Below are positions 5,454 to 33,632 of a DNA stretch of 64,000 nucleotides, one piece after another. The DNA comes from Ramlibacter sp. (GTDB taxonomy: Bacteria; Pseudomonadota; Gammaproteobacteria; Burkholderiales; Burkholderiaceae_C): assembly GCA_019635435.1 (NCBI GenBank), contig JAHBZM010000001.1:2128587-2192586 (forward strand), in the 5' to 3' direction. Numbering within the stretch: the stretch's first letter is position 1; each line of letters begins with the position of its first letter. The position numbers and the translations under genes are program-made. The notes below the pieces were generated by a model. The model did no database searches. It was not told the DNA's origin and worked only from the letters and a program-made list of their open reading frames with translations.

Positions 5454-5500
5454 GCGCCGGCTGGCGTGGACTACAGCCACTTTTATTCAGAAAAAGCAAG

Positions 5501-6823
5501 ATGAAACCGATCCAAGTAGGCCTGTTGGGCATTGGCACCGTGGGCAGTGGCACCTTCAATGTGCTCAAGCGCAACCAGGAAGAAATCCGCCGCCGCGCCG
5601 GCCGCGGCATCGAGATCACCATGGTGGCCGACCTGGACACCGCGCGCGCCCAGGCCGTGGTGGGCGACCAGGCCCGGGTGGTCAACGACGCGCGCGCCGT
5701 CATTGCCAACCCTGACATCGACATCGTCATCGAGCTGATCGGCGGCTACGGCATTGCGCGGGCCCTGGTCATGGAGGCCATCGAGGCCGGCAAGCATGTG
5801 GTCACCGCCAACAAGGCGCTGCTGGCCGTGCATGGCACCGAGATTTTTGCCGCCGCGCACCGCAAGGGCGTGATGGTGGCGTTCGAGGCCGCGGTGGCCG
5901 GCGGCATTCCCATCATCAAGGCGCTGCGCGAGGGTCTCACGGCCAACAGCATCGAGTGGATCGCCGGCATCATCAACGGCACCACCAACTTCATCCTGTC
6001 CGAGATGCGCGACAAGGGGCTGGACTTTGGCGTGGTGCTCAAGGAAGCGCAGCGCCTGGGCTATGCCGAGGCCGACCCCACCTTCGACATCGAAGGCGTC
6101 GATGCCGCGCACAAGGTCACGCTCATGAGCGCCATTGCCTTCGGCATCCCGGTGCAGTTTGACAAGGCTTACGTCGAGGGCATCACCCAGCTTGGCGCCG
6201 CCGACATCAAGTACGCCGAGCAGCTGGGTTACCGCATCAAGCTGCTGGGCATCACCAAGCGCGTGGCCACGGGCATTGAACTGCGCGTGCACCCCAGCCT
6301 GGTGCCCACCAAGCGGCTGATCGCCAATGTGGAAGGGGCCATGAACGCCGTGGTGGTGCAGGGCGATGCCGTGGGCACCACGCTGTACTACGGCAAGGGC
6401 GCGGGCTCCGAGCCCACGGCCAGCGCCGTGATTGCCGACCTGGTGGACATCACCCGCCTGCACACGGCCGACGCCGCGCAGCGCGTGCCGCACCTGGCCT
6501 TCCAGCCCGATGCCATGAGCGACGCGCCTGTGCTGCCCATGAGCGAGGTGGTGACCAGCTACTATCTGCGCCTGCGCGTGGCCGACGAGGCCGGCGTGCT
6601 GGCCAAGGTCACGGGCATCCTGGCCGGCGCGGGCATCAGCATCGACGCCGTGCTGCAGCGCGAGGCCGACGAGGTGAGCCAGGCCGGCGAGAACCAGACC
6701 GACCTGATCATCCTCACGCACGACACGCGCGAGGGCACCATGAACGAGGCGCTCGCGCAGATGCAGGCCCTGCCCACCGTGGTGGCGCCGATCACGCGCA
6801 TCCGCAAGGAAGAGCTGGCGTAA
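5501..6823 (+). CDS. hom: homoserine dehydrogenase
   Basis: N-terminal Rossmann motif GxGxVG and a C-terminal ACT domain. Sits in the conserved alaA-hom-thrC arrangement. Confidence 0.9.
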   Translation: MKPIQVGLLGIGTVGSGTFNVLKRNQEEIRRRAGRGIEITMVADLDTARAQAVVGDQARVVNDARAVIANPDIDIVIELIGGYGIARALVMEAIEAGKHVVTANKALLAVHGTEIFAAAHRKGVMVAFEAAVAGGIPIIKALREGLTANSIEWIAGIINGTTNFILSEMRDKGLDFGVVLKEAQRLGYAEADPTFDIEGVDAAHKVTLMSAIAFGIPVQFDKAYVEGITQLGAADIKYAEQLGYRIKLLGITKRVATGIELRVHPSLVPTKRLIANVEGAMNAVVVQGDAVGTTLYYGKGAGSEPTASAVIADLVDITRLHTADAAQRVPHLAFQPDAMSDAPVLPMSEVVTSYYLRLRVADEAGVLAKVTGILAGAGISIDAVLQREADEVSQAGENQTDLIILTHDTREGTMNEALAQMQALPTVVAPITRIRKEELA

Positions 6824-20092: not shown

Positions 20093-21529
20093 TCAGTGCG
20101 CGGGTGCGGCCTGCGCCATCCCGGTGGCGGCACCGGTGCGGATCAGCAGCGCGCTGAGCAGCGCCGCCACGCCGGCAAACACGGCGCCCACCACAAAGGC
20201 TGTCTGGTAGCCGCCGTTGAGCGCGAGCGGCAGCGCCACGCCGCGCGCCAGCAGGCCCGTGGTGCGCGCGGCCGCCAGGCTGGCCAGCACGGCCAGGCCG
20301 AGCGCGCCGCCCATCATGAAGGCGGTGTTGACCACGCCCGAGGCCAGGCCGGAGTCGGCCGGGCTCACGTCGCTCATGGCGGCCAGCAGCAGCGGGTTGA
20401 ACGCAATGCCCGCGCCCAGGCCCAGCAGCAGCATGCCCGGCAGCACATGCACGGCAAACTGGCCACCGGCCGGCGCCTGGGCAAACAGCAGCAGGCCCAC
20501 GGCGGCCAGGCCCAGGCCCGTGGCCAGCGGCCCGCGGATGCCAAAGCGCATCACGATGCGCGCCGACAGCCCCAGCGAGAACGCCGCCATGATCAGGTTG
20601 GCGGGCAGGAAGGCCAGGCCCACCTGCATGGCGCTGTAGCCCAGCACCAGCTGCAGGTACAGCGCCGAGATGAAGAACCACGCAAACATGGCCGCCGCCC
20701 ACAGCACGCCCACCACGTTGGCGGTGGACACATTGCGCAGCCGGAACAGCGCCAGAGGCATCAGCGGCGCGGCCACGCGCGACTCGATGGCGATGAACGC
20801 CGCCATCAGCAGCGCCGCCGCGCCCAGCAGCCCCAGCGTCTGGCCGGAGCGCCAGCCTGCTTCGTTGCCGTTGACCACGCCGTACACCGCGAGCATGAGC
20901 GACAGCGTGACCGTGAGCGCGCCGGCCACGTCCAGCCGCTGGCCCGCCGAGCCAGCGCCCGGGGCGATCAGCCGCAGGCACAGCGCATACACGGCCACGC
21001 CAATGGGCAGATTGACCAGGAAGATCCAGTGCCAGCTCAGCGTGCTGGTGAGCAGGCCGCCCAGCAGCACGCCAATGCTGCCGCCACCCGCGCAGACAAA
21101 GCCGTACACGCCCATGGCCCTGGCGCGCTCGCCAGGCTCGGTGAACAGGTTCATGATCAGCGACAGCGCCACGGCCGACACCACGGCGCCGCCCAGGCCC
21201 TGCACCGCGCGGGCCGCCACCAGCAGCCCCTGCGAATGGGCCACGCCGCAGGCCAGCGAGGCCAGCGTGAACAGCACGATGCCGGCCAGGAACATGCGGC
21301 GGTGGCCGAACAGGTCACCCAGCCGCCCGCCCAGCAGCAGAAAGCCGCCAAAGGTCAGCATGTAGGCATTGACCACCCAGACCAGCGAGGTCTCGGTGAA
21401 CTTCAGATCCTGTCGGATCGAGGGCAGGGCCACGTTCACGATGGTCGTGTCCAGCACGATCATCAGCACGCCCAGGCACAGCACCATCAGGGCCAGCCAG
21501 CGCTGGCGGGAAGAGGAAGACGAGTTCAT
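20093..21529 (-). CDS. MFS transporter, DHA2 (EmrB/QacA-like) drug-efflux family
   Basis: 478 aa with 14-TMS architecture and the LDTTIVNVALPSI signature. Confidence 0.85.
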   Translation of the reverse strand: MNSSSSSRQRWLALMVLCLGVLMIVLDTTIVNVALPSIRQDLKFTETSLVWVVNAYMLTFGGFLLLGGRLGDLFGHRRMFLAGIVLFTLASLACGVAHSQGLLVAARAVQGLGGAVVSAVALSLIMNLFTEPGERARAMGVYGFVCAGGGSIGVLLGGLLTSTLSWHWIFLVNLPIGVAVYALCLRLIAPGAGSAGQRLDVAGALTVTLSLMLAVYGVVNGNEAGWRSGQTLGLLGAAALLMAAFIAIESRVAAPLMPLALFRLRNVSTANVVGVLWAAAMFAWFFISALYLQLVLGYSAMQVGLAFLPANLIMAAFSLGLSARIVMRFGIRGPLATGLGLAAVGLLLFAQAPAGGQFAVHVLPGMLLLGLGAGIAFNPLLLAAMSDVSPADSGLASGVVNTAFMMGGALGLAVLASLAAARTTGLLARGVALPLALNGGYQTAFVVGAVFAGVAALLSALLIRTGAATGMAQAAPAH

Positions 21530-21547
21530 GGTTGCAAGGCGCCCGTG

Positions 21548-21913
21548 TCAGTACACCACCTGGGTCTTGAAGCCACCCCAGATCATTCGCTTGCCATCAA
21601 ACGGCATGGTCTTGGGGTCCATGGCCTGGATGCGCGGGTCGGCCATGACCTTCTTGTTGACGGCGTCGCGCTGCTTGCGCGACTTGTAGGTGATCCACGA
21701 GAACCACACCACCTCGTCGGCCTTGAGCTTGACCGCCTGCGGGAACGAGGTGAGCTTGCCGGGCTTCACATCATCGGCCATGCATTCGGTGTAGCTCAGC
21801 GCACCGTGCTCCATCCAGATCTTGCCGGCCTTGCGGGCCAGGCGGCGGTAGGCCTCGCTCTGGGCCTTGGGCACCGCGAGCAGAAAGCCATCGACGTAGC
21901 TTGCCATGTCCAT
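21548..21913 (-). CDS. DUF1428-family protein
   Basis: 121 aa. Its length and sequence resemble the YbaA-like DUF1428 family. Assignment is from memory. Confidence 0.5.
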   Translation of the reverse strand: MDMASYVDGFLLAVPKAQSEAYRRLARKAGKIWMEHGALSYTECMADDVKPGKLTSFPQAVKLKADEVVWFSWITYKSRKQRDAVNKKVMADPRIQAMDPKTMPFDGKRMIWGGFKTQVVY

Positions 21914-21931
21914 CTCCTTGCAAAAGGGGTT

Positions 21932-21975
21932 AAAAAAATCTGCGTCCTGCCTGCACGACGAAGAGCCCGGGCAGG
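21932..21975 (-). terminator. intrinsic terminator after the upstream MFS gene (hairpin TCCTGCC...GGCAGGA followed by T7 on the minus strand)
   Basis: A 7-bp GC-rich stem is followed, 5 nt later, by TTTTTTT read on the minus strand. Confidence 0.45.
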
Positions 21976-22009
21976 ATTCGACATCGCCCAGCCTGCATTT
22001 GCCTAAGGG

Positions 22010-23542
22010 TTAACCCGGGGAAATGGGGGAAGCTGTTTCCTGGCGTTGCAGGGTGGCCGCCGCCAGGAAAGCCGCCGCCACCATGATCAAGGCGCTCAGG
22101 GCCGCGCATGCCCGCAGGCCCTGCACAAAGGCCAGCCGGGCCGCGCCCTGCAGGGCCGGACCGGCGGGCTCGGGCCACTGCGCCGCGAGCGCCAGCGCGC
22201 CGCCCACGGTGCTGCGCGCGGCTTCGATGGCCATGGCCGACAGACCCGGCGGCAGCGCGTCGGCCATGGCGTTGCGGTAAATGGCCGCGGCGACGCTGCC
22301 CAGCACGGCAATGCCCAGCGCGCCGCCAAACTCGCTGCTGGTCTCTGACAGGGCGGAGGCCGCCCCCGTGCGCTCAGGCGGCGCGGTGCTGATCACCACG
22401 TCGGTGGTCAGGGCCACCACGGGTGACAGGCCCAGTGCAAACACCACCGTGCCGGCCACCAGCAGCGCCAGTGCCTGGGTGTCCACCTGGCTGATCATGG
22501 CAAAACCCAGGGCGCCCATGACCAGGCCGCCCACCATCACGCGCGGCGTGCCCAGCCGGCGCACCAGCAGCGGCACCACGAATGACCCCGCAATGAAGCC
22601 CAGCGCCGAGGGCAGCGTCCACAGCCCGGCCTGCAGCGGCGCCATGCCCAGCACCAGTTGCAGGTACTGCGCCTCGTAGAGAAATGCCGCAAACATGGCA
22701 AAGAAGCTCAGGATGTTGATCAGCAGCGCCGCGCCAAAGCCCGGCCGGCGCAGCAGGGCCAGGTCAATCAGCGGCACGGCCAGCCGCTGCTGGCGCACCA
22801 CAAACAGCGCGCCCAGCAGCAGCCCGGTGGCCATGGCCAGCAGGCCCAGGGGCGTGACCCCGTGCTCGGCCATGCGCTTCATGCCAAAAATGATGCTGAG
22901 CACCGCGGCCATGGACAGCGCGGCGCTGGCAATGTCGAGCCGGCCAGCATGCGGGTCGCGGAACTCGGGCAGCAGCAGCGGCCCCAGCACCAGCAGCAGC
23001 ACCATAACGGGCACCGCGAGCAGGAACACCGCCTGCCAGCTGAAGTGCGCCAGCACCACGCCGCCGAGCAGCGGGCCGATGGCGCCGCCGGTGGAAAAGC
23101 TGGCAATCCACACCCCAATCGCAATGCGCCGCTCATGCGGGTCGTGGAACATGTTGCGGATCAGCGAGAGCGTGGACGGCGCCAGTGTGGCGCCCGCCAC
23201 GCCCAGCAGTGCGCGCGCGGCAATCAGCATGTTGGCGCTGTGCGAGAGCGCCGCCAGCACCGAGGCCACGCCAAAGGCCGCCGCGCCAATCATCAGCAGG
23301 CGGCGCCGGCCGATGCGGTCGCCCAGCGTGCCCATGGTGATGAGCGAGCCCGCGACCAGAAAGCCGTAGATGTCCACGATCCACAGCATCTGCGCGGCGC
23401 TGGGTTTGAGGTCGGCGGTGATGGCCGGAATGGCCAGGTTCAGCACCGACAGGTCCATCGCGTACAGCAGGCAGGGCAGGGCGATCACGGCCAGGCCGAT
23501 CCACTCGCGGCGGCTGGCCTGCGGGCCGGGCAGGGGGGCCAT
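22010..23542 (-). CDS. MFS transporter (DHA2-like, 14 TMS)
   Basis: Start trimmed to MAPLPGP, which abuts the stop of the upstream lipoprotein gene. Confidence 0.8.
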   Translation of the reverse strand: MAPLPGPQASRREWIGLAVIALPCLLYAMDLSVLNLAIPAITADLKPSAAQMLWIVDIYGFLVAGSLITMGTLGDRIGRRRLLMIGAAAFGVASVLAALSHSANMLIAARALLGVAGATLAPSTLSLIRNMFHDPHERRIAIGVWIASFSTGGAIGPLLGGVVLAHFSWQAVFLLAVPVMVLLLVLGPLLLPEFRDPHAGRLDIASAALSMAAVLSIIFGMKRMAEHGVTPLGLLAMATGLLLGALFVVRQQRLAVPLIDLALLRRPGFGAALLINILSFFAMFAAFLYEAQYLQLVLGMAPLQAGLWTLPSALGFIAGSFVVPLLVRRLGTPRVMVGGLVMGALGFAMISQVDTQALALLVAGTVVFALGLSPVVALTTDVVISTAPPERTGAASALSETSSEFGGALGIAVLGSVAAAIYRNAMADALPPGLSAMAIEAARSTVGGALALAAQWPEPAGPALQGAARLAFVQGLRACAALSALIMVAAAFLAAATLQRQETASPISPG

Positions 23543-23546
23543 GCGC

Positions 23547-24023
23547 TTACTTGAGGGGGATAACCGTGCCCGGCGGCAGCGCCACGGCGGTGACCGCGTT
23601 TTGCGGCGAGCCTTCAATCACGCGGTCGGAGTAGGTGAGGTAAACCAGCGTGTTGCGCCTGGTGTCGACCATGCGGATCACGCGCAGCTTCTTGAACACC
23701 AGCGAGATGCGTTCGCTGAACATCTCTTCCTGCTTGTCCAGCGGCTTGCCCGTGGGGAAGGTGATGGGGCCGGTCTGGCGGCAGGCAATCGACGCCTCGG
23801 CCTTGTCCTCGGCCAGGCCCAGCCCGCCCTTGATGCCGCCGGTCTTGGCGCGCGACACATAGCAGGTCACGCCGCCGACCTTGGGGTCGTCATAGGCGTC
23901 GACCACGATCTTGTGGTCGGGCCCGAAGAACTTGAACACCGTGTCGACTTCGCCGACCGATTCGCCGCCGGCCTTGCCGCAGGCGGCCAGCAGCAGCGCG
24001 ATCATGAGGCTGTATTTTTTCAT
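23547..24023 (-). CDS. CreA-family lipoprotein
   Basis: Lipobox LLAAC, about 158 aa, with a CreA-like sequence. Confidence 0.55.
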   Translation of the reverse strand: MKKYSLMIALLLAACGKAGGESVGEVDTVFKFFGPDHKIVVDAYDDPKVGGVTCYVSRAKTGGIKGGLGLAEDKAEASIACRQTGPITFPTGKPLDKQEEMFSERISLVFKKLRVIRMVDTRRNTLVYLTYSDRVIEGSPQNAVTAVALPPGTVIPLK

Positions 24024-24463
24024 CCCTCTGTCCTGGTTGGGGGAAACAGCCTTGGACTGTAGCGGCTTTGCCGCCGGGGCGTCAGAGCAGGCCGCGTGCG
24101 TCGGCGGCGCGGATGACCTGCATCAACTCGTCCACATCATCGGCCGTGGCCAGCGGCTTGCTGAGCGCCTGCTGCAGGTGGCGCGGCAGGCGCAGCGGCG
24201 GCGGTGGCCGGGTGGGCCGGGTCTGGGTGCTGGCGTCGGCATGGGCCGGCTCGGGGGTGGGGTACAGAAAAATCATGGCGTGCTTTCAAATCATCAATGG
24301 CTTGATGATGCGAGGCGCGCCGGGGCGCTCTGGTAGGCGGGGCGGGTATTTGGCTGTCAGCTTCGTCGGGTGGGCTTGTAGGCGATTGGCTTACTTTGCA
24401 GGCGGCTAGCCGGGGTGGGCGGCCCTTATGGATTCCTGACGCTTCCCCTGCCACACTTCGGTC

Positions 24464-25963
24464 ATGTTCACCGAATTCACGGGGCGACCGACCACGCGCA
24501 GCGCAGCCGCATTGTCGGCGGTGGGCCTTCTGGGGCTGGCGACCTTGCTGGCTTTCTGCCTGGATTCGCAGGTGTCGCTCACCAGCCTGGCCATGGTGTA
24601 CCTGCTGGCCGTGGTGGTGGCGGCGTATCTTCTGGACTGGGTGGCTTCGGCCGCCACGGCGGTGGCGGCTGTCACGGCACTCAATTTCCTCTTTGTTCCG
24701 CCGCGCTGGACGTTCGAAGTGGAGAGCCGGGATCATCTGATTGCGCTCTCCGCGATGTTGGTGGTGTCTCTGGTCATCAGCCATCTGGCGCGTGGGCTGC
24801 GGCGCGAGGCGGCGCTGGCCCGGCTCAACGAGCAGCGCGCGCAGCAACTCCAGTGGCTGGCAACCGAGCTGGGTGCCGCTCAAACCCCTCAGGAGGTGTG
24901 TGAGTTGGGGCGGCGGGCCTTGCTGCAGGCCTTCGCCGGGCCGGTGCTGCTGGTCGGGCTGGATCCTGATGGCTCGATGCAGACCGAACCGTCCGTTCCT
25001 TCTCTGGTGCGCCAGGGGCTGCAGCAATGCGTCAAGGAGAACGCCGTTCTGGGGCCGGGTACGGGTCGCTGGCCGGGTCTGAATGCCTGGTACCTGCCCA
25101 TGGGAAATGCCGAGGAGACGCTGGGCGTGGTGCAGGTTCAGCCCGCCCGGGCTGGCGACAACGAGGGCCGCCTGCATGCCGCCGCGCTGGTCGCGCTTTT
25201 GGGCCAGGCCCTGCTGCGGCTGAGGTTGAACAGGGCGGTGCTGGCGGCCCAGGGCGAAGCGCAGCGCCAGCATTTGCTCAACACCTTTTTGGCGGCGATT
25301 TCCCATGATCTTCGCACCCCCCTGGCCGCGATCACGGGGGCGGCCACTTCCCTGCAGACTCAGGGCGAGCGCTTGTCGCATGCCAGTCGGGAACGGCTCA
25401 TGGGCAGCATCGTGAGTGAGGCCACCTACCTCAATACCCTGGCAGAAAACACGCTGCACCTCACGCGCCTGACCTCGCAACAGACCATGTTGCCCCTGCA
25501 GTGGGAGTCGCTGGAGGAGCTGGTTGGCACGGCGGTGGCGCGCATTCGCCAGCGTGACCCCGATCGACGCATCAGCACAAGGGTCCAGCCCGGCCTGCCG
25601 CTGGTGCGCGCGGAACCGGTGCTGATGGGGCGGCTGCTGGCCAATCTGCTCGACAACGCGCTTCACTACAGCGACGGTCCGGTGGAGGTGACCGCGCAGG
25701 CGGGGCCGGCGGAACTCAGCCTCTGCGTCAAGGACAGGGGCCGCGGATTGACCGAAGAGCTCAAGGCCAGATTGTTCCTGCCCTTCAGCCGTGGCGACCA
25801 CACAGGCCTGCGCGGGGCTGGGTTGGGGCTGGCGGTGTGCCATGCCATTGCCAGTGCCCATGGCGGACGCCTGAGTGCACGCAATCGCAAGGGCGGTGGC
25901 GCGGCATTCTGTCTGACGCTGACACTTGAGCCTCAACCTGATCTGTCAGAGGCCATGCCGTGA
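24464..25963 (+). CDS. sensor histidine kinase, KdpD-like but lacking the N-terminal KdpD/Usp sensing domains
   Basis: Aligns with E. coli KdpD from the 4-TM segment onward (LAMVYLLAVVVAA / FVPPRWT), followed by GAF-like, HisKA (ISHDLRTPL) and HATPase domains. No N-terminal P-loop domain. Confidence 0.8.
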   Translation: MFTEFTGRPTTRSAAALSAVGLLGLATLLAFCLDSQVSLTSLAMVYLLAVVVAAYLLDWVASAATAVAAVTALNFLFVPPRWTFEVESRDHLIALSAMLVVSLVISHLARGLRREAALARLNEQRAQQLQWLATELGAAQTPQEVCELGRRALLQAFAGPVLLVGLDPDGSMQTEPSVPSLVRQGLQQCVKENAVLGPGTGRWPGLNAWYLPMGNAEETLGVVQVQPARAGDNEGRLHAAALVALLGQALLRLRLNRAVLAAQGEAQRQHLLNTFLAAISHDLRTPLAAITGAATSLQTQGERLSHASRERLMGSIVSEATYLNTLAENTLHLTRLTSQQTMLPLQWESLEELVGTAVARIRQRDPDRRISTRVQPGLPLVRAEPVLMGRLLANLLDNALHYSDGPVEVTAQAGPAELSLCVKDRGRGLTEELKARLFLPFSRGDHTGLRGAGLGLAVCHAIASAHGGRLSARNRKGGGAAFCLTLTLEPQPDLSEAMP

Positions 25964-26646
25964 AGCTGCGTGTGTTGCTGGTCGAGGACGATCCGCATGT
26001 CAGGGGGTTCATGCAGGAAGCCCTGTCGGTGGAGGGGTTCGAGGTCCTGACGGCGGCCTCGCTGAGCGAGGCGCAGGCCATGTTCCGGCACGGGGGTGTC
26101 GGCCTGATCCTGCTGGACCTGGGGCTGCCTGACGGCGACGGCGAAGTGCTGTTGCGCGAGATGCGCCAGCAAGGCAACCTGCCGGTCATCGTGGTCTCGG
26201 CGCGTGACCAGGAAGCGCAGAAGATTCAACTGCTCGACGCAGGCGCTGATGATTTCCTGACCAAGCCGTTCAGCGTGGGGGAATTGCTGGCTCGCATCCG
26301 GGTGAGCCTGAGGCACCGCGGCACCGCGCTATTGCCAGCCGTCACGCTGCACGCGCTTGATGATTTGCGCGTGGATCTGCAAAGACATGTGGTGTGCCTC
26401 AACGATGCCCCGGTTCACCTGACGCCCACCGAGTACCGGCTGCTGGCCCGCCTGGTCCGCCAGGCCGGACGCGTGGTCACGCACCGGCAACTGCTGGCTG
26501 ACGTCTGGGGCGCCGAGTTCACCGAGCACACACACTACCTGCGGCTGTACATGGCCCAGCTTCGAGCCAAGCTGGAGCGCAATCCGGCCGAGCCGCGCCA
26601 CCTGCTGACCGAGGCCGGCGTGGGCTACCGGCTGGCGGACACCTGA
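25960..26646 (+). CDS. kdpE: OmpR-family response regulator, KdpE-like
   Basis: REC domain plus winged-helix domain. Overlaps the kinase stop. Confidence 0.8.
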   Translation: MKLRVLLVEDDPHVRGFMQEALSVEGFEVLTAASLSEAQAMFRHGGVGLILLDLGLPDGDGEVLLREMRQQGNLPVIVVSARDQEAQKIQLLDAGADDFLTKPFSVGELLARIRVSLRHRGTALLPAVTLHALDDLRVDLQRHVVCLNDAPVHLTPTEYRLLARLVRQAGRVVTHRQLLADVWGAEFTEHTHYLRLYMAQLRAKLERNPAEPRHLLTEAGVGYRLADT

Positions 26647-26678
26647 GCCGCCCGCTGCTGCCCGCCCTTATGCTTTCC

Positions 26679-26695
26679 TGACACCCGGGGTGTCA
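26679..26695. promoter_or_regulatory. perfect inverted repeat TGACACCC-G-GGGTGTCA upstream of kup
   Basis: 8-bp arms with a 1-nt spacer, centred about 40 bp upstream of the kup start. Confidence 0.35.
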
Positions 26696-26726
26696 CATTG
26701 AAAGTCTTGCAACTTCCAGGGCATTC

Positions 26727-28625
26727 ATGAGCGACTCCCTCGTTTCCCCAGCTGACAGGCAACCCTCGGGGCGGGCACTGGGCATCCTGATGCTCGGCGC
26801 GTTGGGCGTCGTCTATGGCGACATTGGCACCAGCCCGCTTTACACCATGAAGGAGATATTTGGCGTGGCCAAGGTCCCCCTGGACGCGGCGCATATCGTG
26901 GGGGCCGTTTCCACCATTGTCTGGGGCCTGCTCATGGTGGTGACGCTCAAGTACGTCGTGCTGGTTCTGCGGGCCAACAACCGGGGCGAAGGCGGCGTTC
27001 TGGCACTGGCTGCCCTGGCTGCCCAGTCGGTGGGTGGCAAGAGCCAGCGACGGGCGGGATTGCTGCTGTTGGGCATGGCGGGCGCCGCGCTGTTTTACGG
27101 CGACAGCGTGATCACCCCGGCAATCTCGGTGCTCAGTGCAGTGGAAGGCCTGGAAATTGTGACGCCGTTGCTCAAGCCCTATGTCCTGCCGGTATCAATG
27201 GCCGTGCTGATCGCGCTGTTTGCCGTGCAGCGCCGGGGGACCGCGCGGGTGGGGCGCCTGTTTGGTCCCGTCATCCTGTTGTGGTTTGCGGTGTTGGCGT
27301 TCACCGGTGGGGTGCAGGTTGCGCGGCAGCCAGGGATATTGTGGGCACTCAACCCGCTTGAGGCGCTGGCCTTCCTGCGTGGACAGGGCTGGCATGTATT
27401 TGCGGCTGTCGGTGCCATCGTCCTGGCCTTTACCGGGGCCGAGACGCTTTACGCCGACATGGGGCACTTTGGCAAGCGGCCGGTCCGGTGGGCCTGGTCG
27501 GGCTACGTGCTTCCTGCACTGGCATTGCAGTACATGGGGCAGGGCGCACTGCTCATGCGGGATGCCTCGGCGCTGGAGAACCCCTTTTACCGGATGTTTC
27601 CCCAGGAGTGGCTGCTGCCCGCGGTGGCGCTGGCGACGCTGGCCACGGTGATTGCGTCGCAGGCCGTGATCTCGGGCGCGTATTCCATGACCCGCCAGGC
27701 GGTCCAGCTTGGCCTGCTGCCCCGCATGAAGGTGATCTATACATCCGCCAGAGATGCCGGGCAGATATACATGCCCCAGGTCAACTGGGTGCTGCTGGCG
27801 GCCGTGCTGGCCGCCGTGCTGGGCTTTGGCAGTTCCAGCGCGCTGGCTTCTGCCTATGGCATTGCCGTGACACTGACCATGTTCATCACCACCGTGCTGA
27901 CCTTCTTTGTGGTGCGCCATGGCTGGGGCTATCCCCTGCCACTGGCGCTGGGGGCGACGGGCGCCTTCCTGGCACTGGACGCACTGCTGGTGGCCTCTTG
28001 CGCGCTCAAGTTTCCGGAAGGGGGCTGGTTCCCCATTGCCGCTGGTATTGCCATCGTCCTGGTGATGACGACTTGGCGACGCGGGCGCGAAATTCTTCTG
28101 GACACCATTCGTCGCGATGATCCCGACCTTCAGCAATTCGTTCGTGGACTGGCAGGGAGTTTTCCGCAACGCGTGCCGCGAACCGCCGTCTATGCCGTGG
28201 CCAATCCAGACACCGTCCCCCAGGCCCTCATGCACAACCTCAAGCACAACCAGGTGCTTCACGAGCGCAACCTGATCCTGAATGTGGTGTTCCATGAGGT
28301 GCCGTGGATTCCTTTTGGCGAGAGGGTCAAGGTCACACCACTGGAGCCCGGCTTCTGGCGGGTGGAGGTGCACTATGGTTTCAAGAATATTCCGGACATC
28401 CCCCAGGCCCTCTCGCTATGTGCTGCCCAGGGCGTGGACATCAACCTGTTTGAAACGTCGTACTTCCTGAGCCGGGAAATCATCGTGCCCACCCGGGGGC
28501 CTGGCATGGCTGGCTGGCGTGAGGCGCTCTTCGCCCTGATGTCCCGCAACGCGGGCAATGCGGCGGACTTCTTCCGCTTGCCGGGCAATTGCGTGATCGA
28601 GTTGGGAACCCGGGTTCAGATCTGA
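26727..28625 (+). CDS. kup: KUP/HAK/KT-family potassium uptake protein
   Basis: 632 aa with the N-terminal [13 protein letters not shown] signature. Confidence 0.9.
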
Positions 28626-28627
28626 CG
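28581..28627 (+). repeat. direct repeat DR-L (native kup 3' terminus)
   Basis: CCGGGCAATTGCGTGATCGAGTTGGGAACCCGGGTTCAGATCTGACG. Confidence 0.7.
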
Positions 28628-28684
28628 GCACTACGCAACATCTGGCGTGAGCACTGGAGGTCAACCACAGGGCAGGTCGGCATA

Positions 28685-29065
28685 TCAAGTTTCGAGCGGT
28701 GGTTTGGCGGCCTCTTTCAAGCAACGCGTCATGTCCCGCTTGCGCTTCGCATTGGCTGCGCGCCAGGCGCTTCTGGCTAGTTCCACAAATCGATCCTCGG
28801 CAATATCAGGCGCGCGGGCTGTGCCCCGGTCCTGATCGAGCCAGCCCGTCGGTTGGCGGGCGTGGTGTTCGATCTGCCTGGCCAGCTTGTCGCTGATGGG
28901 GCGGGCACTCTTGATCTGGCTCCACATGCTGGGCGAGATTTCCAGCAGGGCGGCAAATGTCTGGTCCAGGCCCTTGGGTGCGTCGCCGGCCGCAATGCGC
29001 TCCTGCAAAAAGGTCTGGTAGAGCGCGACCACATTGGCGCGGCGGGTAACGGTGGTTGGGGGCAC
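28685..29065 (-). CDS. XRE-family (Cro/CI-like) helix-turn-helix regulator
   Basis: HTH-like segment FAALLEISPSMWSQIKSARPISDKLARQIEHHARQPTGWLD. GTG start. Divergent from the small-ORF unit and the tRNA array. Confidence 0.5.
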   Translation of the reverse strand: MPPTTVTRRANVVALYQTFLQERIAAGDAPKGLDQTFAALLEISPSMWSQIKSARPISDKLARQIEHHARQPTGWLDQDRGTARAPDIAEDRFVELARSAWRAANAKRKRDMTRCLKEAAKPPLET

Positions 29066-29110
29066 GTGTGGAAAAGCTGCAACAGCGGAAAAATTAATTG
29101 TCTCCGGTGT

Positions 29111-29145
29111 TGACCGGATCGTAAAGACTCTTTACAGTTCGCCCA
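29111..29145 (+). promoter_or_regulatory. sigma70-like promoter (TTGACC-N17-TACAGT) in the AT-rich stretch
   Basis: Lies 45 nt upstream of the small ORF's RBS. Confidence 0.35.
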
Positions 29146-29191
29146 CTGCCTGAAACGGCATGACCATTTTTATCAACACAAGGAACCGATC

Positions 29192-29323
29192 GTGATCACC
29201 AAGCCCGCATTCACAACCAGCTTGACCCATTTGGGTCGGCGTGCGTTGGTATGCGCCACGTTCATCCAGCCATGGATGAATGGCCGCGAGGATCGCCCTT
29301 TTCCGGGAATGGAAGACGTGTAG
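29192..29323 (+). CDS. small ORF (43 aa) with a strong RBS, followed by an intrinsic terminator
   Basis: AAGGAA RBS 6 nt before the GTG. Peptide MITKPAFTTSLTHLGRRALVCATFIQPWMNGREDRPFPGMEDV. The terminator lies about 30 nt downstream. No homology recognised. Confidence 0.35.
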   Translation: MITKPAFTTSLTHLGRRALVCATFIQPWMNGREDRPFPGMEDV

Positions 29324-29352
29324 ACGCTTCTTCCATCAGCTCTTTCGAGAGG

Positions 29353-29392
29353 CCCGGATTCCACAAGGATCCGGGCCTTTTTTTTCGCTCCT
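29353..29392 (+). terminator. intrinsic terminator (GGCCCGGAT-N8-ATCCGGGCC followed by T8)
   Basis: A perfect 9-bp GC-rich stem is immediately followed by TTTTTTTT. Confidence 0.75.
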
Positions 29393-29700
29393 TTTGGGGG
29401 TGCTTGCAGTGATCGCGCTGCAAGTCGCTGCGTCATGGCGCGGCGAATTGATCTTTAACAAGTTGCCGCGGGGCAGCGCCGGTACTGGCCGGACGCGAGC
29501 TCCGCAGAAAGAAGTGGATGCCGGTCTCATGCCGGTCATCTGCTCCATTTCGGGTGTGCCTATGCACCACCGTCGCCGCGCTGCCCTGGAGTGGGTGCGA
29601 CGGGATGTGCAGGGTGTCGCTCACCGTTGTGCAGCGAGGCTCACAGGCGGCGTCATGCCGTCTGCTCGCGCGTAGACACAGCCGAAATGGAGAAGCATTC

Positions 29701-29778
29701 GCCCCGTTAGCCCAGTGGAATCAGAGCACTGGCCTACGAACCCAGGGGTCGCACGTTCGAATCGTGCATGGGGCACCA
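29701..29778 (+). tRNA. tRNA-Arg(ACG)-like, with C12-A23 and C31-C39 stem mismatches; CCA encoded
   Basis: Hand-folded cloverleaf. Acceptor GCCCCGT/ATGGGGC, T-arm GCACG-TTCGAAT-CGTGC, anticodon loop CTACGAA identical to that of E. coli tRNA-Arg(ACG), discriminator A. Confidence 0.65.
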
Positions 29779-29785
29779 GATCAAA

Positions 29786-29863
29786 GTCGTGTTCGTCTAG
29801 ATGGCCAAGGACACCTGAATTTCAATCAGGAGATCGCGGGTTCGACTCCCGCACACGACGCCA
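29786..29863 (+). tRNA. tRNA-Glu(TTC); CCA encoded
   Basis: Lies 7 nt after the previous tRNA. Glu-type D-arm GTCTAGATGGCCAAGGAC, anticodon loop ATTTCAA, T-arm GCGGG-TTCGACT-CCCGC, discriminator G. Confidence 0.7.
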
Positions 29864-29954
29864 TCAAGACCAGAGCGAGCCCTCAGTAATGAGAGCTTGC
29901 GGAAACCGGTCGCAAAGATTGGGCGGCACCGGAACCCGTCACCGGAAATTCAGA

Positions 29955-30030
29955 GGTCCGTTAGCTCAGTGGCCAGAGTGGTTCCCTGTCGAGGAACAAG
30001 TCGCGGGTTCGACTCCCGCACGGACCGCCA
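29955..30030 (+). tRNA. tRNA-Asp(GTC); CCA encoded
   Basis: Acceptor GGTCCGT/ACGGACC, D-arm GCTC-AGTGGCCA-GAGT, anticodon stem GTTCC/GGAAC with loop CTGTCGA (G37), T-arm GCGGG-TTCGACT-CCCGC. Confidence 0.7.
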
Positions 30031-30075
30031 ATTCCGAGAACATCAACCAACCCGTTAACTTCCAAGGAGGACGAC

Positions 30076-30249
30076 ATGAAACGGCAACACACCGGCGAAC
30101 AGCCGCAACGCCAACCGGTCGTCGCCTTGGCGAGGAACCGAATGGCTTGGGCCAGGCTCTGGCGCGCCACGAAGCAGTGGCGCCGCCGCATGGTCGAAGC
30201 GGACGATGCCGACCTGGCACAGCGCGTTCGCCTGAGTGGCGAATGGTGA
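30076..30249 (+). CDS. small basic ORF (57 aa) with a strong Shine-Dalgarno, just upstream of the HNH gene
   Basis: AAGGAGG sits 6 nt before the ATG. The peptide MKRQHTGEQPQRQPVVALARNRMAWARLWRATKQWRRRMVEADDADLAQRVRLSGEW is Arg/Trp-rich. It falls below the ORF-track length cut-off. Confidence 0.3.
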   Translation: MKRQHTGEQPQRQPVVALARNRMAWARLWRATKQWRRRMVEADDADLAQRVRLSGEW

Positions 30250-30304
30250 GAGCAATGGTCCACCGTTTGACGAAAAAAAATTTTAGCAACGAAAGGAAAG
30301 CATC

Positions 30305-30868
30305 ATGCAAGCGCATGTCCTGCAACTCGATATCCAGGGAACCCCTCAGGCCTGGATTTCGCTGGAACAGGCCGCGCTGCATTACGCCACCGACGGCGTG
30401 GCGTGGGAAGACGGAGCAGGCCCTCTGGCCACCCTGCGTGGCGGCTGGAGCGTGGCGCGGGGTGTGCAGTCCACGCTGGCGGTGCACCCCATCATCGCCC
30501 TGCGCGGCTCGCCCCGACGCAACCTGTTTGATGTGGTGCCTGGCTTCAGCAAGTCCAAGCTGCTGCGGCGCGACCGTTTCACCTGCGCGTACTGCGCGCG
30601 GGTGTTTGCCGAGCGCGACCTGCAGTGCGAGCACATCCTGCCCGCATCGCGGGGGGGTGCGTGGTCGTGGATGAACCTGGTCACGGCCTGCGCCGCGTGC
30701 AATGGCCGCAAGGCCGACCGCACGCCCGAGGAGGCGGGCATGCCCCTGGTGTACCTGCCCTATGTGCCGACCCGCTTTGAGGATTTTCTTCTGGTGGGCC
30801 GCAACATCCGGGCCGACGTGCACCTGTGGCTGGCCTCTCGCCTGCCCAAAGGATCGCGACTGAACTGA
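30305..30868 (+). CDS. HNH endonuclease
   Basis: HNH motif CAYCARVF...CEHILPASRGG...NLVTACAACNGRK (paired CxxC and a catalytic His). 187 aa. Confidence 0.8.
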   Translation: MQAHVLQLDIQGTPQAWISLEQAALHYATDGVAWEDGAGPLATLRGGWSVARGVQSTLAVHPIIALRGSPRRNLFDVVPGFSKSKLLRRDRFTCAYCARVFAERDLQCEHILPASRGGAWSWMNLVTACAACNGRKADRTPEEAGMPLVYLPYVPTRFEDFLLVGRNIRADVHLWLASRLPKGSRLN

Positions 30869-31022
30869 GGCTGTCCACAGTCAGAGTTCAGCCCACACAT
30901 CTTCCGCAGAAGGCGAACGCTCACAGGAGCGGGGTTGGGGCAAAGGCCCGCCCCGCCGGTGTCATTGCCCGGGCCTGGCCCGTGGGCGGGTGACATGCCG
31001 CACCGCCGGAAACGGTTGATAC

Positions 31023-31076
31023 GGGTGATGTGGGGATACCTCCTCGACGAGCCGGGTTCGACTCCCGGATCACCCA
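31023..31076 (+). ncRNA. truncated tRNA-like element: 7-bp acceptor stem plus canonical T-arm, with D and anticodon arms replaced by one short hairpin (54 nt)
   Basis: GGGTGAT...ATCACCC acceptor pairing; T-arm CCGGG-TTCGACT-CCCGG; discriminator A; no CCA. It abuts the next tRNA, 3 nt away. It could be a tRNA pseudogene remnant or a tRNA-mimic RNA. Confidence 0.4.
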
Positions 31077-31079
31077 CCC

Positions 31080-31152
31080 CATTGGATAGCTCAGTCGGGT
31101 AGAGCAGTCTTTGCATAAAAGACCGGTCACGGGTTCGACTCCCGTTCCAAAG
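31080..31152 (+). tRNA. tRNA-Met/Ile2-like (anticodon CAT) with G33, an A2-A71 mismatch and no encoded CCA
   Basis: Canonical D-arm TAGCTCAGTCGGGTAGAGCA. Anticodon stem GTCTT/AAGAC with loop TGCATAA. T-arm ACGGG-TTCGACT-CCCGT. Confidence 0.55.
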
Positions 31153-31160
31153 CAAACCAG

Positions 31161-31231
31161 GGTCGAAAGACCCGCGCCGCTGCAGTCGCGGGGCAAGCCT
31201 GATCCGACGTTGCCGCCCCGAGCGGCAACGC
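31161..31231 (+). other. three consecutive GC-rich hairpins (GGGTC-GAAA-GACCC; CCGC-N7-GCGG; CGTTGCCGC-N5-GCGGCAACG) immediately 3' of the tRNA array
   Basis: Perfect stems with no U-tract. Possibly RNA processing or stability elements. Confidence 0.4.
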
Positions 31232-31430
31232 AGGACCGGACGAGCCCTGCAACTGCCCTCGGTGGCGGCCGGCGCTGAAACCGCCCGGTCCGCGCCCACG
31301 GCCAGCACAGGCTGCCTTGCCGGGTGGCCTGAGCGCACCGTGACGCCCGGCCCTGTGCCTTCAGCGTTTGCAGCCCCCGTTGCCGCGGCGCACCCCTTCA
31401 TTCACACGCATCCAACACAAGGAGAACACC

Positions 31431-32570
31431 ATGGAATTCAAGCGTGTCAGCATCAAGAAAAACGAGCGCGGCATCCTGCTGCGCAATGGTGACTTTGACC
31501 GCGTGCTGCGGCCCGGCCGTCACCTGCTGTTCAGCGGTCTGGACACGCTGCGCGTGGAAAACTTCGCGCTCGACCAACCCGCATTCGCCCACAGTCTGGC
31601 GGACTACCTCATGGCCAGGGAAGCCGGGGTGGTCGCGGCCGAGTTCGTGCGCGTCGAGCTGGGCGAGACCCAAGCCGGCCTGCGTTCCGAGAACGGCGTG
31701 TTGGTGGAAGTGCTTGCTCCCACCACGCGGCGCCTGTACTGGAAGGGGCTGGTGGACGTGCAGGTGGAGGTGATCGACCTGGTCGCCTCGCCCGAGCTCG
31801 CCCCTGGCACGGTGGCCCGCCTGACGCAGACCCAGCTGCGCCAACGTGGCGTGACCGGCCTGGCCGGTGTGCTGCAGGTGCAGGTGCCCGAACACTCGGT
31901 GGGCGTGCTGACCGTTGACGGCAAGGTGGAACGCCTGCTGGTGCCCGGTGCGTACGCGTTCTGGAAGTTCAACCGCAATGTGGCGGTGGATCTAGTGGAC
32001 ATGCGCCTGCAGTCGCTGGAAGTCACGGGCCAGGAAATCCTGACCCGCGACAAAGTCAGCCTGCGGCTGAACCTGGCGGCCACCTGGCGCTACACCGATG
32101 TGCTCAAGGCCTTCACCCAGCTGCAAAAGCCCGCGGAACACCTGTACCGCGAGCTGCAGTTCGGGCTGCGCGCCGCTGTGGGCACCCGCACGCTGGATGA
32201 GCTGCTGGAGAACAAGACGGTCATCGACGAAGTGGTGACCACCTATGTGCGTGGCCGCCTGTCCGCGTGGGGGCTGGCGCTGGACGGCGTGGGTGTGAAA
32301 GACATCGTGCTGCCCGGCGAGATGAAAACCATCCTGGCCCAGGTGGTCGAGGCGGGCAAGTCGGCGGAAGCCAACGTGATCCGCCGGCGCGAAGAAACCG
32401 CCGCCACGCGTTCCCTGCTCAACACGGCCAAGGTCATGGAGGACAACCCCGTGGCCCTGCGCCTGAAGGAGCTGGAAACGCTGGAGCGTGTGGCCGAGCG
32501 CATCGACAAGATCTCCGTCTTCGGCGGTCTGGACCAGGTGCTCAACGGGCTAGTGAAGCTCAAGCCCTAG
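31431..32570 (+). CDS. SPFH/band-7 (slipin-like) domain protein, no predicted TM segment
   Basis: AAGGAG RBS. SPFH core from about residue 170 (VDLVDMRLQSLEV...). C-terminal coiled-coil-like region. Confidence 0.7.
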   Translation: MEFKRVSIKKNERGILLRNGDFDRVLRPGRHLLFSGLDTLRVENFALDQPAFAHSLADYLMAREAGVVAAEFVRVELGETQAGLRSENGVLVEVLAPTTRRLYWKGLVDVQVEVIDLVASPELAPGTVARLTQTQLRQRGVTGLAGVLQVQVPEHSVGVLTVDGKVERLLVPGAYAFWKFNRNVAVDLVDMRLQSLEVTGQEILTRDKVSLRLNLAATWRYTDVLKAFTQLQKPAEHLYRELQFGLRAAVGTRTLDELLENKTVIDEVVTTYVRGRLSAWGLALDGVGVKDIVLPGEMKTILAQVVEAGKSAEANVIRRREETAATRSLLNTAKVMEDNPVALRLKELETLERVAERIDKISVFGGLDQVLNGLVKLKP

Positions 32571-32621
32571 CAACCCTCCGGGGGCGGCCTTTGGTCGCCC
32601 CCGTTCTTTGGAAACAACATC

Positions 32622-33632
32622 ATGGAAACACAAGAGAAGAAAAAGAAAGTCAAACAGCCGCCCGTGCTGTTTGCCAGGACGCAGGCCGTGATGGCCCAGC
32701 TTGGAGATTGTCTGGGCGGCCCTGTGGTGAGCTACTGGAACAACCCGCGAGGCTCGGTGTGCCAGTCAGACGTGGTGGCGCTGTATGACGTGCTGGCACG
32801 TCTGGGCCGGCACGACACCATGTACCTGTTCATCAAGTCCGACGGGGGCAGCGGCCAGGTGTCGCTGCGCCTGGTCAACCTGCTGCGCCAACACTGCCGC
32901 CAGCTCGTGGCGCTGGTGCCGCTGGAGTGCGCATCGGCCGCGACGATGATTGCGCTGGGCGCGGACCGCATCCTGATGGGGCCTACCGCCTATCTGACGG
33001 CGGTGGACACCTCGCTGAACCATGCGCTGTCGCCTGTGGACCGTGACAACGACCGTGTGAACGTCAGCCTGGATGAACTCAACCGGGTAATCCGGCTGTG
33101 GCGCGACCAGCAGGGCGAGCAGGCCGAGAACGCCTACAAGTCGCTGTTCCAATACGTGCACCCGCTGGTGATCGGCGCCGTTGATCGCGCCGAATCGCTG
33201 TCCATCATGCTGTGCCGCGAGTTGCTGGCCAACCACATCGCCGATGAGGCAGTGGCCGAGCAGATAGCGGCGACGCTGAATGCCAAATACCCGTCGCACA
33301 GCTACCCCATCCTGCTGGATGAGGCCGTCAAGATCGGCCTGAAAGCCGAGCGCATGCCGCAAGAGGTCAACACCCTGTTGCTGCAACTGAACGGCTACTA
33401 CAGTGAAATGGGGCAGAAGGCGACGACCGACTTTGACGAGATCAGGGCCCATGGCAATGAGATCGTCAACATCTGGGAGGCGTCGGGCACGCAGGTGTTC
33501 TACCAACAGGACAAGGACTGGTTCTACCGCGCCGAAGAACGGCGCTGGATCACCATGAACGACAACAGCGGATGGCGCCGCATTGAACGAAACGGCTCAC
33601 GCATCAAGCGCACCTTGCTGCACGTGGCCTGA
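32622..33632 (+). CDS. ClpP/crotonase-fold serine protease (SDH/NfeD/S49-like)
   Basis: Motifs KSDGGSG and ECASAATMIALGAD are typical of Clp-fold serine proteases. This class partners with SPFH proteins. Confidence 0.55.
   Translation: METQEKKKKVKQPPVLFARTQAVMAQLGDCLGGPVVSYWNNPRGSVCQSDVVALYDVLARLGRHDTMYLFIKSDGGSGQVSLRLVNLLRQHCRQLVALVPLECASAATMIALGADRILMGPTAYLTAVDTSLNHALSPVDRDNDRVNVSLDELNRVIRLWRDQQGEQAENAYKSLFQYVHPLVIGAVDRAESLSIMLCRELLANHIADEAVAEQIAATLNAKYPSHSYPILLDEAVKIGLKAERMPQEVNTLLLQLNGYYSEMGQKATTDFDEIRAHGNEIVNIWEASGTQVFYQQDKDWFYRAEERRWITMNDNSGWRRIERNGSRIKRTLLHVA

Follow-up and report, generated by a model that had tools for sequence, protein, structure and literature searches.

A short KdpD/KdpE-type two-component pair predicted to control the K+ transporter gene kup in a conserved three-gene cassette of Ramlibacter and its relatives

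Why should genes for a KdpD-like sensor kinase and a KdpE-like response regulator stand directly ahead of kup, with no genes for the Kdp pump beside them? In the usual view, bacterial Kup is a constitutive, low-affinity back-up, and KdpDE is the private regulator of the Kdp pump. The question is raised by a 64,000-nucleotide stretch of DNA from Ramlibacter sp. (GenBank assembly GCA_019635435.1, contig JAHBZM010000001.1, positions 2,128,587 to 2,192,586 of the forward strand), the whole of which we refer to as the window. An earlier note on the same DNA had suggested either a rewired K+-responsive circuit that controls kup or an orphaned remnant. Using domain content, family conservation, synteny, and the conservation and geometry of a promoter box, all computed here, we conclude with moderate confidence that the three genes constitute a conserved K+-uptake regulon, in which the KdpDE-type pair activates both kup and its own operon and K+ limitation is the signal.

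The kinase aligns with KdpD from the transmembrane (TM) block onward only and lacks the N-terminal/Usp module of ~400 aa, as the earlier note had observed. Pfam finds DUF4118 (residues 18-120, 81.7 bits), HisKA (272-338, 42.9 bits) and HATPase_c (386-489, 77 bits) and nothing else, the KdpD N-terminal (Walker A/B) and Usp domains being absent, and the protein covers only positions 402-890 of the 895 in the NCBIfam KdpD model (NF007793, an equivalog; 264.8 bits). It shares 32% identity with residues 427-889 of E. coli KdpD, and its best match among solved structures is the DHp-CA part of KdpD (6LGQ_C, E 8.7e-32). With KdpD residues 1-395 as query, tblastn gave no match in the window or in any of the cassette loci described below. 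An in-frame TGA at 24437-24439 blocks upstream extension of the open reading frame (ORF), and 13 aligned orthologs share the same start, 17-20 residues ahead of TM1; therefore, the shortness of the N-terminus is genuine and does not stem from gene calling. What is present is laid out as in KdpD, with a four-helix TM block (DUF4118) followed by DHp and CA domains that carry a conserved phospho-acceptor histidine, and this histidine (H281) is invariant in the 13 orthologs, as are the N, G1 and G2 boxes. The middle domain between the TM block and DHp appears, from modelling, to be GAF-like. In an AlphaFold model of the kinase (mean pLDDT, the per-residue confidence score, of 76), an alpha/beta domain at about residues 125-260 reaches 85-93, and the top Foldseek match of the model is a full-length bacteriophytochrome, aligned over 468 columns that span a GAF/PHY-type module and the kinase core. 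The middle domain of all 13 aligned Kup-linked kinases also contains an invariant LGPGTGRWPGL motif (residues ~196-206 of the window kinase), which is a clade-specific candidate for a ligand or K+ site. The best explanation for these features is that the kinase retains only the sensing-and-signalling core of KdpD, that is, four TM helices, a GAF-like domain, DHp and CA.

The start of the regulator gene overlaps the stop of the kinase gene (GTGA), so that the two are translationally coupled. The regulator combines a receiver domain (Response_reg, 95.8 bits) and a winged helix (Trans_reg_C, 80 bits) with a KdpE-type recognition helix, HYLRLYMAQLRAK, that is near-identical to the HYLRIYMGHLRQK of E. 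coli KdpE. To judge from the sequence, its phospho-acceptor aspartate is D53. Its best NCBIfam model is, by a wide margin, KdpE (NF007820, 244.6 bits), the next being MtrA (163 bits), while PhoB scores 159.4 bits; it is 50% identical to E. coli KdpE, and its best match among solved structures is KdpE 4KNY (E 1.7e-65). The pair lies immediately upstream of kup, as had been noted before, with a gap of 80 bp. The kup product matches K_trans (582.4 bits) and K_trans_C (153 bits) over their full lengths (PF02705/PF22776), as expected for the KUP family. Its score against the NCBIfam Kup model (676 bits, with 616 of 622 positions covered) does not reach the equivalog cutoff of 883 bits, and the protein falls slightly under the cutoff of TIGR00794 (521.3 vs 539.6); it is therefore a member of the KUP family that need not be functionally equivalent to E. 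coli Kup. The absence of Kdp ATPase genes, also part of the earlier description, holds for the entire 64-kb window, in which tblastn with E. coli KdpF, KdpA, KdpB and KdpC gave no match. For the genus, the genome paper of R. tataouinensis TTB310 lists two Kup-like genes and TrkH and leaves Kdp unmentioned, which is evidence by omission, and a review of Ramlibacter has no K+ content.

Table 1. Positions of the cassette genes, their predicted control elements and related permease genes (window coordinates unless a locus is named).
Feature	Position	Strand	Description
Predicted kinase-regulator operon box	24424-24441	+	CCTTATG-gatt-CCTGACG, 7-4-7
Predicted extended -10, kinase operon	24449-24457	+	TGc-CACACT; 10 nt after box; ATG 6 nt later; inferred
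Kinase ORF	24464-25963	+	499 aa; short KdpD-type sensor histidine kinase
Regulator ORF	25960-26646	+	228 aa; KdpE-like OmpR/PhoB-family response regulator
Predicted kup box	26666-26683	+	CCTTATG-cttt-CCTGACA
Palindrome in regulator-kup gap	26679-26695		TGACACCC-G-GGGTGTCA; perfect 8+8
Predicted kup -10 hexamer	26694-26699	+	CACATT; 10 nt after box; TGt precedes; inferred
kup ORF	26727-28625	+	632 aa; KUP-family K+ transporter; predicted target gene
KimA-sized permease genes	L033:2051-3871, L034:1071-3011, L059:737-2575		606-646 aa; by short KdpD-like/KdpE-like pairs

The same arrangement is conserved well beyond Ramlibacter. All 120 of the closest kinase homologs (55-66% identity), which include proteins of Rhodoferax, Curvibacter and Hylemonella, are 478-531 aa long and carry DUF4118, HisKA and HATPase_c only. 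Among the representatives of clusters made at 50% identity, the nearest 27 (42-54% identity) are likewise all short, and full-length forms of ~900 aa appear only farther out. Context look-ups for nine orthologs recovered the kinase, a 228-aa regulator and a 622-625-aa Kup with order and strand kept, while the flanks vary between genomes. A metagenome scan with the kinase alignment yielded 80 more loci, which were sorted by tblastn; among these, every kinase of at least 50% identity is short and adjoins a regulator and kup. At one locus, L029, kup is divergently oriented. Assemblies that carry the cassette include GCA_964267675.1, GCA_002633085.1 (Curvibacter sp. PD_MW3) and GCA_030681745.1 (Hylemonella), and Curvibacter fontanus is a culturable carrier. 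Relatives at 28-40% identity are mostly full-length KdpDs, and all of these that have a sufficiently long flank show kdpB and kdpC immediately ahead of the kinase gene. A profile built from distant representatives led back to the Comamonadaceae core, but it gave access to three distant members with 42-43% kinase identity, two of which proved to be further complete cassettes (one in a genome of 48% G+C); the contig of the third stops within the regulator. Altogether, kup is present at 17 of 17 loci with a readable neighbourhood, at kinase identities down to 43% and over 48-73% G+C, and tblastn detected no kdp genes within 4-6 kb in the cassette loci tested. In a neighbour-joining tree of 82 kinase cores (our kinase trees are distance-based), the Kup-linked kinases are monophyletic in 100/100 bootstraps; mean identity is 57% within this clade and 32% to full-length KdpDs. 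The window fits the Kup-linked short-KdpD/KdpE cassette as we define it, having a kinase of this clade, a KdpE-like regulator, an adjacent kup and the 7-4-7 boxes described below.

Third-position G+C is 0.79-0.84 in the cassette genes (24464-28625) and 0.89-0.93 in the four genes upstream (20093-24023). This difference and the variation in flanks between genomes hint at movement of the cassette as a single unit. A plasmid search returned only canonical KdpD, on Caballeronia replicons, and the cassette is therefore not plasmid-borne in that collection. The sole flank conservation that we saw is a CreA-family gene directly upstream on the minus strand, present both in the window (23547-24023) and in its closest relative, L021 (3392-3877).

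Conserved along with the genes is an intergenic element upstream of both the kinase and kup, a direct repeat of 11-bp period with the form CCT[T/G/A]ATG-N4-CCTGAYR. The box of the kinase operon occupies the same place in every orthologous locus with a readable kinase upstream region, and all 16 same-strand loci have a box between the regulator gene and kup; in L029 a box lies in the shared intergenic region. Even with one mismatch allowed, the pattern CCTDATGNNNNCCTGAYR has exactly two matches in the window, compared to 0.16 expected by chance. There are exactly two matches per complete orthologous locus compared and none in 12 unrelated loci, and a relaxed pattern gave one stray match in 473 kb of further loci; since the pattern was derived from these same loci, the counts measure specificity and are not an independent discovery. 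Distant and variant members of the cassette have recognisable versions of the box at the same places. A relaxed-pattern match inside the regulator gene (26245-26262 in the window, 7785-7802 in L018) was rejected as a coding coincidence that reflects conserved ADDFLTKPF codons. KdpE binds direct repeats of the type TTTATA-N5-TTTACA, which the conserved repeat at both promoters resembles. For comparison, the KdpE box of kdpFABC in the E. coli K-12 genome reads TTTTATA-cttt-TTTTACA-ccc, where the window kup box reads CCTTATG-cttt-CCTGACA-ccc.

The position of the box relative to the predicted promoters is equally constant. Over 29 real boxes at 17 loci the geometry is invariant, with the box followed after 10 nt by an nAnnnT hexamer; in the 31 tabulated sites, hexamer position 2 is A in 29 and position 6 is T in 28. 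These -10 hexamers and the start sites were assigned by inspection. At orthologous kinase promoters the predicted extended -10 is mostly TGnTACGCT with identical spacing, and because the kinase ATG follows only 6-10 nt later, a leaderless or nearly leaderless mRNA is predicted. The orthologous kup hexamers are GAYAGT, CACAGT or AACAAT at the same spacing. We found no consensus sigma-70 promoter in 24000-28900, which fits promoters that depend on an activator.

In most orthologs, including the one from the 48% G+C genome, a conserved CTGTTCACT(G) element follows the predicted kup -10 at a distance of ~7-20 nt, where the kup mRNA is predicted to begin (e.g. L014 near 8235, L018 near 8240 and L108 near 7290). 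At several loci this element and the -10 region form an inverted repeat (ACAGTGAA...TTCACTGT). The window lacks the element.

On the reading we favour, the membrane kinase with its KdpD core would phosphorylate the KdpE-like regulator, and the phosphorylated regulator would bind the 11-bp-period direct repeat which, lying 10 nt ahead of a weak -10, would stand in for a -35 element. In this way the regulator would activate two promoters, that of kup and that of its own operon, the latter by positive autoregulation and with a near-leaderless mRNA. By analogy with KdpD the signal would most likely be K+ limitation, and Kup would thus be inducible and not constitutive. Within this scheme, regulator binding to the box, activation in preference to repression, the K+ signal and the sites at which transcription starts are all inferred. 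The N-terminal domain of KdpD is an atypical serine kinase that phosphorylates KdpB at Ser162 and switches the pump off (PMC11018627, 2024); since it is specific for KdpB, its absence is expected where the regulated transporter is not Kdp. The N-terminal KdpD/Usp module may thus have been lost because serine phosphorylation of KdpB, the shut-off of the Kdp pump, would have no target in a system dedicated to Kup. In support of a K+ signal, the proposed K+-sensing sites of E. coli KdpD all lie in the TM/GAF/C-terminal part (PMC11018627; PMC5936718), which is the part that the kinase keeps.

Several observations weigh against this regulon. Both proteins score below the equivalog cutoffs of the families to which we liken them (264.8 vs 1123 bits for the kinase with NF007793; 244.6 vs 325 bits for the regulator with NF007820), and a Pfam scan of kinase residues 119-272 detects no GAF family, not even with a threshold of E <= 10. 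The -10 hexamers, which were picked by eye, are weak. Nothing terminator-like was detected between the regulator gene and kup, so that kup may also be expressed in part by read-through from the kinase operon. The boxes occupy a Pho-box-like position that overlaps the -35, unlike the E. coli KdpE site, which we take to lie further upstream, and repression from such a position is possible. The literature searched, coverage of which is incomplete, contains no experiment on K+ responsiveness, on regulator-box binding or on regulated kup transcription. Moreover, kup is not under KdpE in the systems that have been studied; KdpE of S. fredii binds the kdpFABC promoter and not the kup promoter (PMC9239096), and E. 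coli Kup is described as constitutive (PMC5936718); our inference of kup control therefore rests on context.

The alternative that survives best, unlikely though we judge it, is that the pair regulates kup in response not to K+ but to, for example, pH, osmolarity, Na+/NH4+ or membrane state, its stimulus having diverged from that of KdpD. An identity of only 32% to full-length KdpD cores would allow for such divergence, as would a middle domain that Pfam does not recognise as GAF and that carries the clade-specific LGPGTGRWPGL. E. coli Kup has also been linked to uptake at low pH and under hyperosmotic conditions (as cited in PMC3164672). Yet the region that the kinase retains holds all of the K+ sites proposed for KdpD, the sole conserved target is a K+ importer, and KdpDs that were truncated independently pair with another K+ importer, KimA (see below).

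Another possibility, to which we give a low probability, is that cassette and boxes are as described and the regulator is a repressor that sits over the -35 and blocks RNA polymerase at kup and at its own operon, for instance under abundant K+. The box covers part of the -35 region and stops 10 nt short of the -10, a position that repressors use too; in addition, kup expression in Caulobacter is presumed harmful at low K+ and subject to down-regulation by an unknown mechanism (bioRxiv 10.1101/2023.07.05.547876). The combination of weak -10s with no recognisable -35 at the proper spacing and no consensus sigma-70 promoter is, however, typical of activator-dependent promoters, and KdpE is an activator. 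By analogy, the Pho-box-like layout also favours activation. In a Pho-box, two 11-bp direct repeats, each of 7 conserved and 4 variable positions, replace the -35 and end 10 nt upstream of the -10, and a 7-4-7 repeat at this distance is the known geometry of PhoB activation. The likeness to PhoB/PhoR promoters covers the 11-bp repeat layout, the 10 nt to the -10 and, as predicted here, an autoregulated two-component operon. It does not extend to the half-site sequence, which differs, or to the regulator, which is nearer to KdpE (244.6 bits) than to PhoB (159.4 bits) and does not belong to the PhoB family itself.

The perfect palindrome that the earlier note had reported in the regulator-kup gap is present (Table 1), and the accompanying proposal that KdpE binds it is unsupported in that form. 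Its left arm coincides with half-site 2 of the kup box, whereas its right arm consists of non-conserved spacer and the first bases of the -10, and it is conserved in no orthologous locus, including the closest relative, L021. Perfect 8+8 palindromes with loops of 0-4 nt number 19 in the window, compared to 13 +/- 4 in Markov-1 simulations, which is near chance. OmpR/PhoB-family regulators bind direct repeats, and to judge from the sequence the site of this regulator is likely a direct repeat and not a palindrome; the predicted operator is well defined, and it overlaps the palindrome but appears distinct from it. It is thus very improbable that the palindrome is itself the operator, or that it forms a terminator or attenuator hairpin between the regulator gene and kup. 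A perfect 8+8 match within an 80-bp gap invites that idea, as do different inverted repeats nearby in other loci (e.g. CAGTGAAC-ccct-GTTCACTG in L014), but neither the sequence nor the position is conserved, the frequency is about that of chance, and the palindrome has no T-run after it and is not called terminator-like. We regard it as largely incidental.

That the pair is a remnant, a decayed kdpDE left beside kup by chance after the loss of kdpFABC, is scarcely credible and was rejected, for although the window has no kdpFABC and both proteins fall below their equivalog cutoffs, the ORFs are intact and translationally coupled, the catalytic motifs are invariant, the short kinases form a deep and species-rich clade of uniform length, linkage to kup persists despite changing flanks, and the boxes are conserved at both promoters. 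Of the two suggestions made at the outset, therefore, the remnant is contradicted by the conservation data, and the rewired circuit controlling kup receives strong support from comparative evidence (synteny at 17/17 loci, intact motifs and a box at each promoter).

The favoured circuit, in which the pair activates kup, resembles E. coli KdpD/KdpE-kdpFABC in that the kinase core is homologous throughout (TM block, DHp and CA), the regulator is half identical with a near-identical recognition helix, the box is a 7-4-7 direct repeat of similar sequence, and the target, as predicted here, is a K+ importer. It is unlike the E. coli system in that the kinase has no N-terminal and Usp module, the predicted target is a KUP-family K+/H+ symporter and not a P-type pump, the box lies 10 nt from the -10 where the E. 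coli site is presumably further upstream, and a second predicted box would autoregulate a separate kinase-regulator promoter. Furthermore, the Kup-linked kinases form a clade of their own, and linkage to kdpFABC is absent from the 64-kb window.

There is precedent for the cassette at the level of annotation. The Azotobacter genes kdpD1-kdpE1-kupA (Achr_19800-19820 and Avin_24520-24540) share its gene order, with kup distal, and the pair was annotated as regulators of KupA (PMC4465626, 2015). That proposal is a one-sentence annotation inference for a gammaproteobacterium, made without promoter analysis or experiment, and the likeness is one of gene order and annotation; we found no experimental follow-up in the literature searched, coverage of which is incomplete. 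In A. vinelandii DJ the unit occurs without a Kdp ATPase, and in A. chroococcum it coexists with a separate kdp operon (PMC4465626). Because of the latter case, the earlier suggestion that a kdpFABC-kdpDE operon elsewhere in the genome could count as a refutation is too strong, and such an operon would not refute the kup circuit. The acidophile genome papers that we checked do not report linkage of kup and kdpDE.

Chains consisting only of TM, GAF and DHpCA are among the KdpD architectures listed by Silberberg et al. in 2024 (PMC11018627). Their survey was limited to species with annotated Kdp(F)ABC, and the short kinase there is paired with a separate KdpD/Usp serine-kinase chain that serves the pump, whereas the kinase described here is tied to kup, with no Kdp gene within 4-6 kb in the loci tested. 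Expression of KUP-type importers that depends on K+ status, as predicted here, is also a feature of Bacillus kimA, a KUP-superfamily gene with a cyclic di-AMP riboswitch, and of the HAK/KUP genes that plants induce upon K+ starvation; the control proposed here is by a two-component system, not by a riboswitch or eukaryotic signalling. In Caulobacter, kup is under ChvGI control (bioRxiv 10.1101/2023.07.05.547876).

Kup is not the only importer found beside a short KdpD/KdpE pair. Five more distant short kinases without the N-terminal module adjoin APC-type permeases of 600-800 aa, and three of these permeases are of KimA size (Table 1). The one that was tested against solved structures, from L033, is a full-length homolog of the K+ importer KimA (E 9.5e-148 to 6S3K). 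KdpE-type 7-4-7 repeats lie upstream of all three KimA-sized permease genes, for example TTTTACG-cgct-TTTTACG in L059. The three KimA-linked kinases are monophyletic in 0/100 bootstraps, and the nearest relative of two of them is a full-length KdpD with ~70% identity; therefore, loss of the N-terminus and re-coupling happened several times. In L057 (537-2921) and L067 (717-3128), the neighbours of the short pair are APC-family permeases of ~800 aa without a solved relative, and at L080 (2127-4094) a short KdpD/KdpE pair stands beside a Kef-type exchanger (Na_H_Exchanger and TrkA_N) and a 48%-identical Kup. The proteins at L057, L067 and L080 could represent additional K+ transporters that are controlled in the same manner.

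Elsewhere in the window, a second perfect palindrome, ATCATCAA-tggc-TTGATGAT at 24290-24309, lies just upstream of a minus-strand ORF of 64 aa (24082-24276) that has no Pfam match, and it may be the operator of that gene. The region downstream of kup (28626-33632) is of lower G+C (0.60) and contains a cluster of four tRNA genes, three at 29701-30030 (Arg-ACG, Glu-TTC and Asp-GTC) and one at 31080-31153 (Met-CAT). Between them is an HNH endonuclease gene (30305-30868), SPFH and ClpP-like SDH protease genes come next, and the region could be a mobile or phage-derived segment. ARAGORN also calls a 96-nt tRNA-Ile(GAT) on the minus strand at 6392-6487, inside a 459-aa ORF (5447-6823) that a composition-based map marks as coding; the unusual length of this call points to a false positive, or else to a pseudo tRNA or one with an intron.

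Altogether, the cassette is real, conserved and functionally coherent, and it represents a KdpDE-type system without the KdpB-directed module that is probably dedicated to Kup. More broadly, and only tentatively, we propose that the KdpD core and KdpE make up a portable K+ module that has repeatedly been detached from the Kdp pump and re-coupled to other importers, once anciently to Kup and several times recently to KimA, and that the KdpB-directed serine-kinase domain was shed each time. A KUP-type symporter would then serve, where Kdp is absent, as a K+-starvation-inducible and possibly high-affinity uptake system. If true, widespread control of Kup, and elsewhere of KimA, by KdpDE-type systems would change both of the usual views with which we began, and the cassettes would be a natural experiment in support of the 2024 finding that the N-terminus of KdpD serves KdpB only. 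The cassette offers a putative minimal K+ sensor of 499 aa with which to dissect K+ sensing by the TM/GAF core, and a precise promoter model of two 18-bp boxes, as well as a way to improve the annotation of thousands of proteins that currently go by the names 'DUF4118 domain-containing protein' or 'KdpD'.

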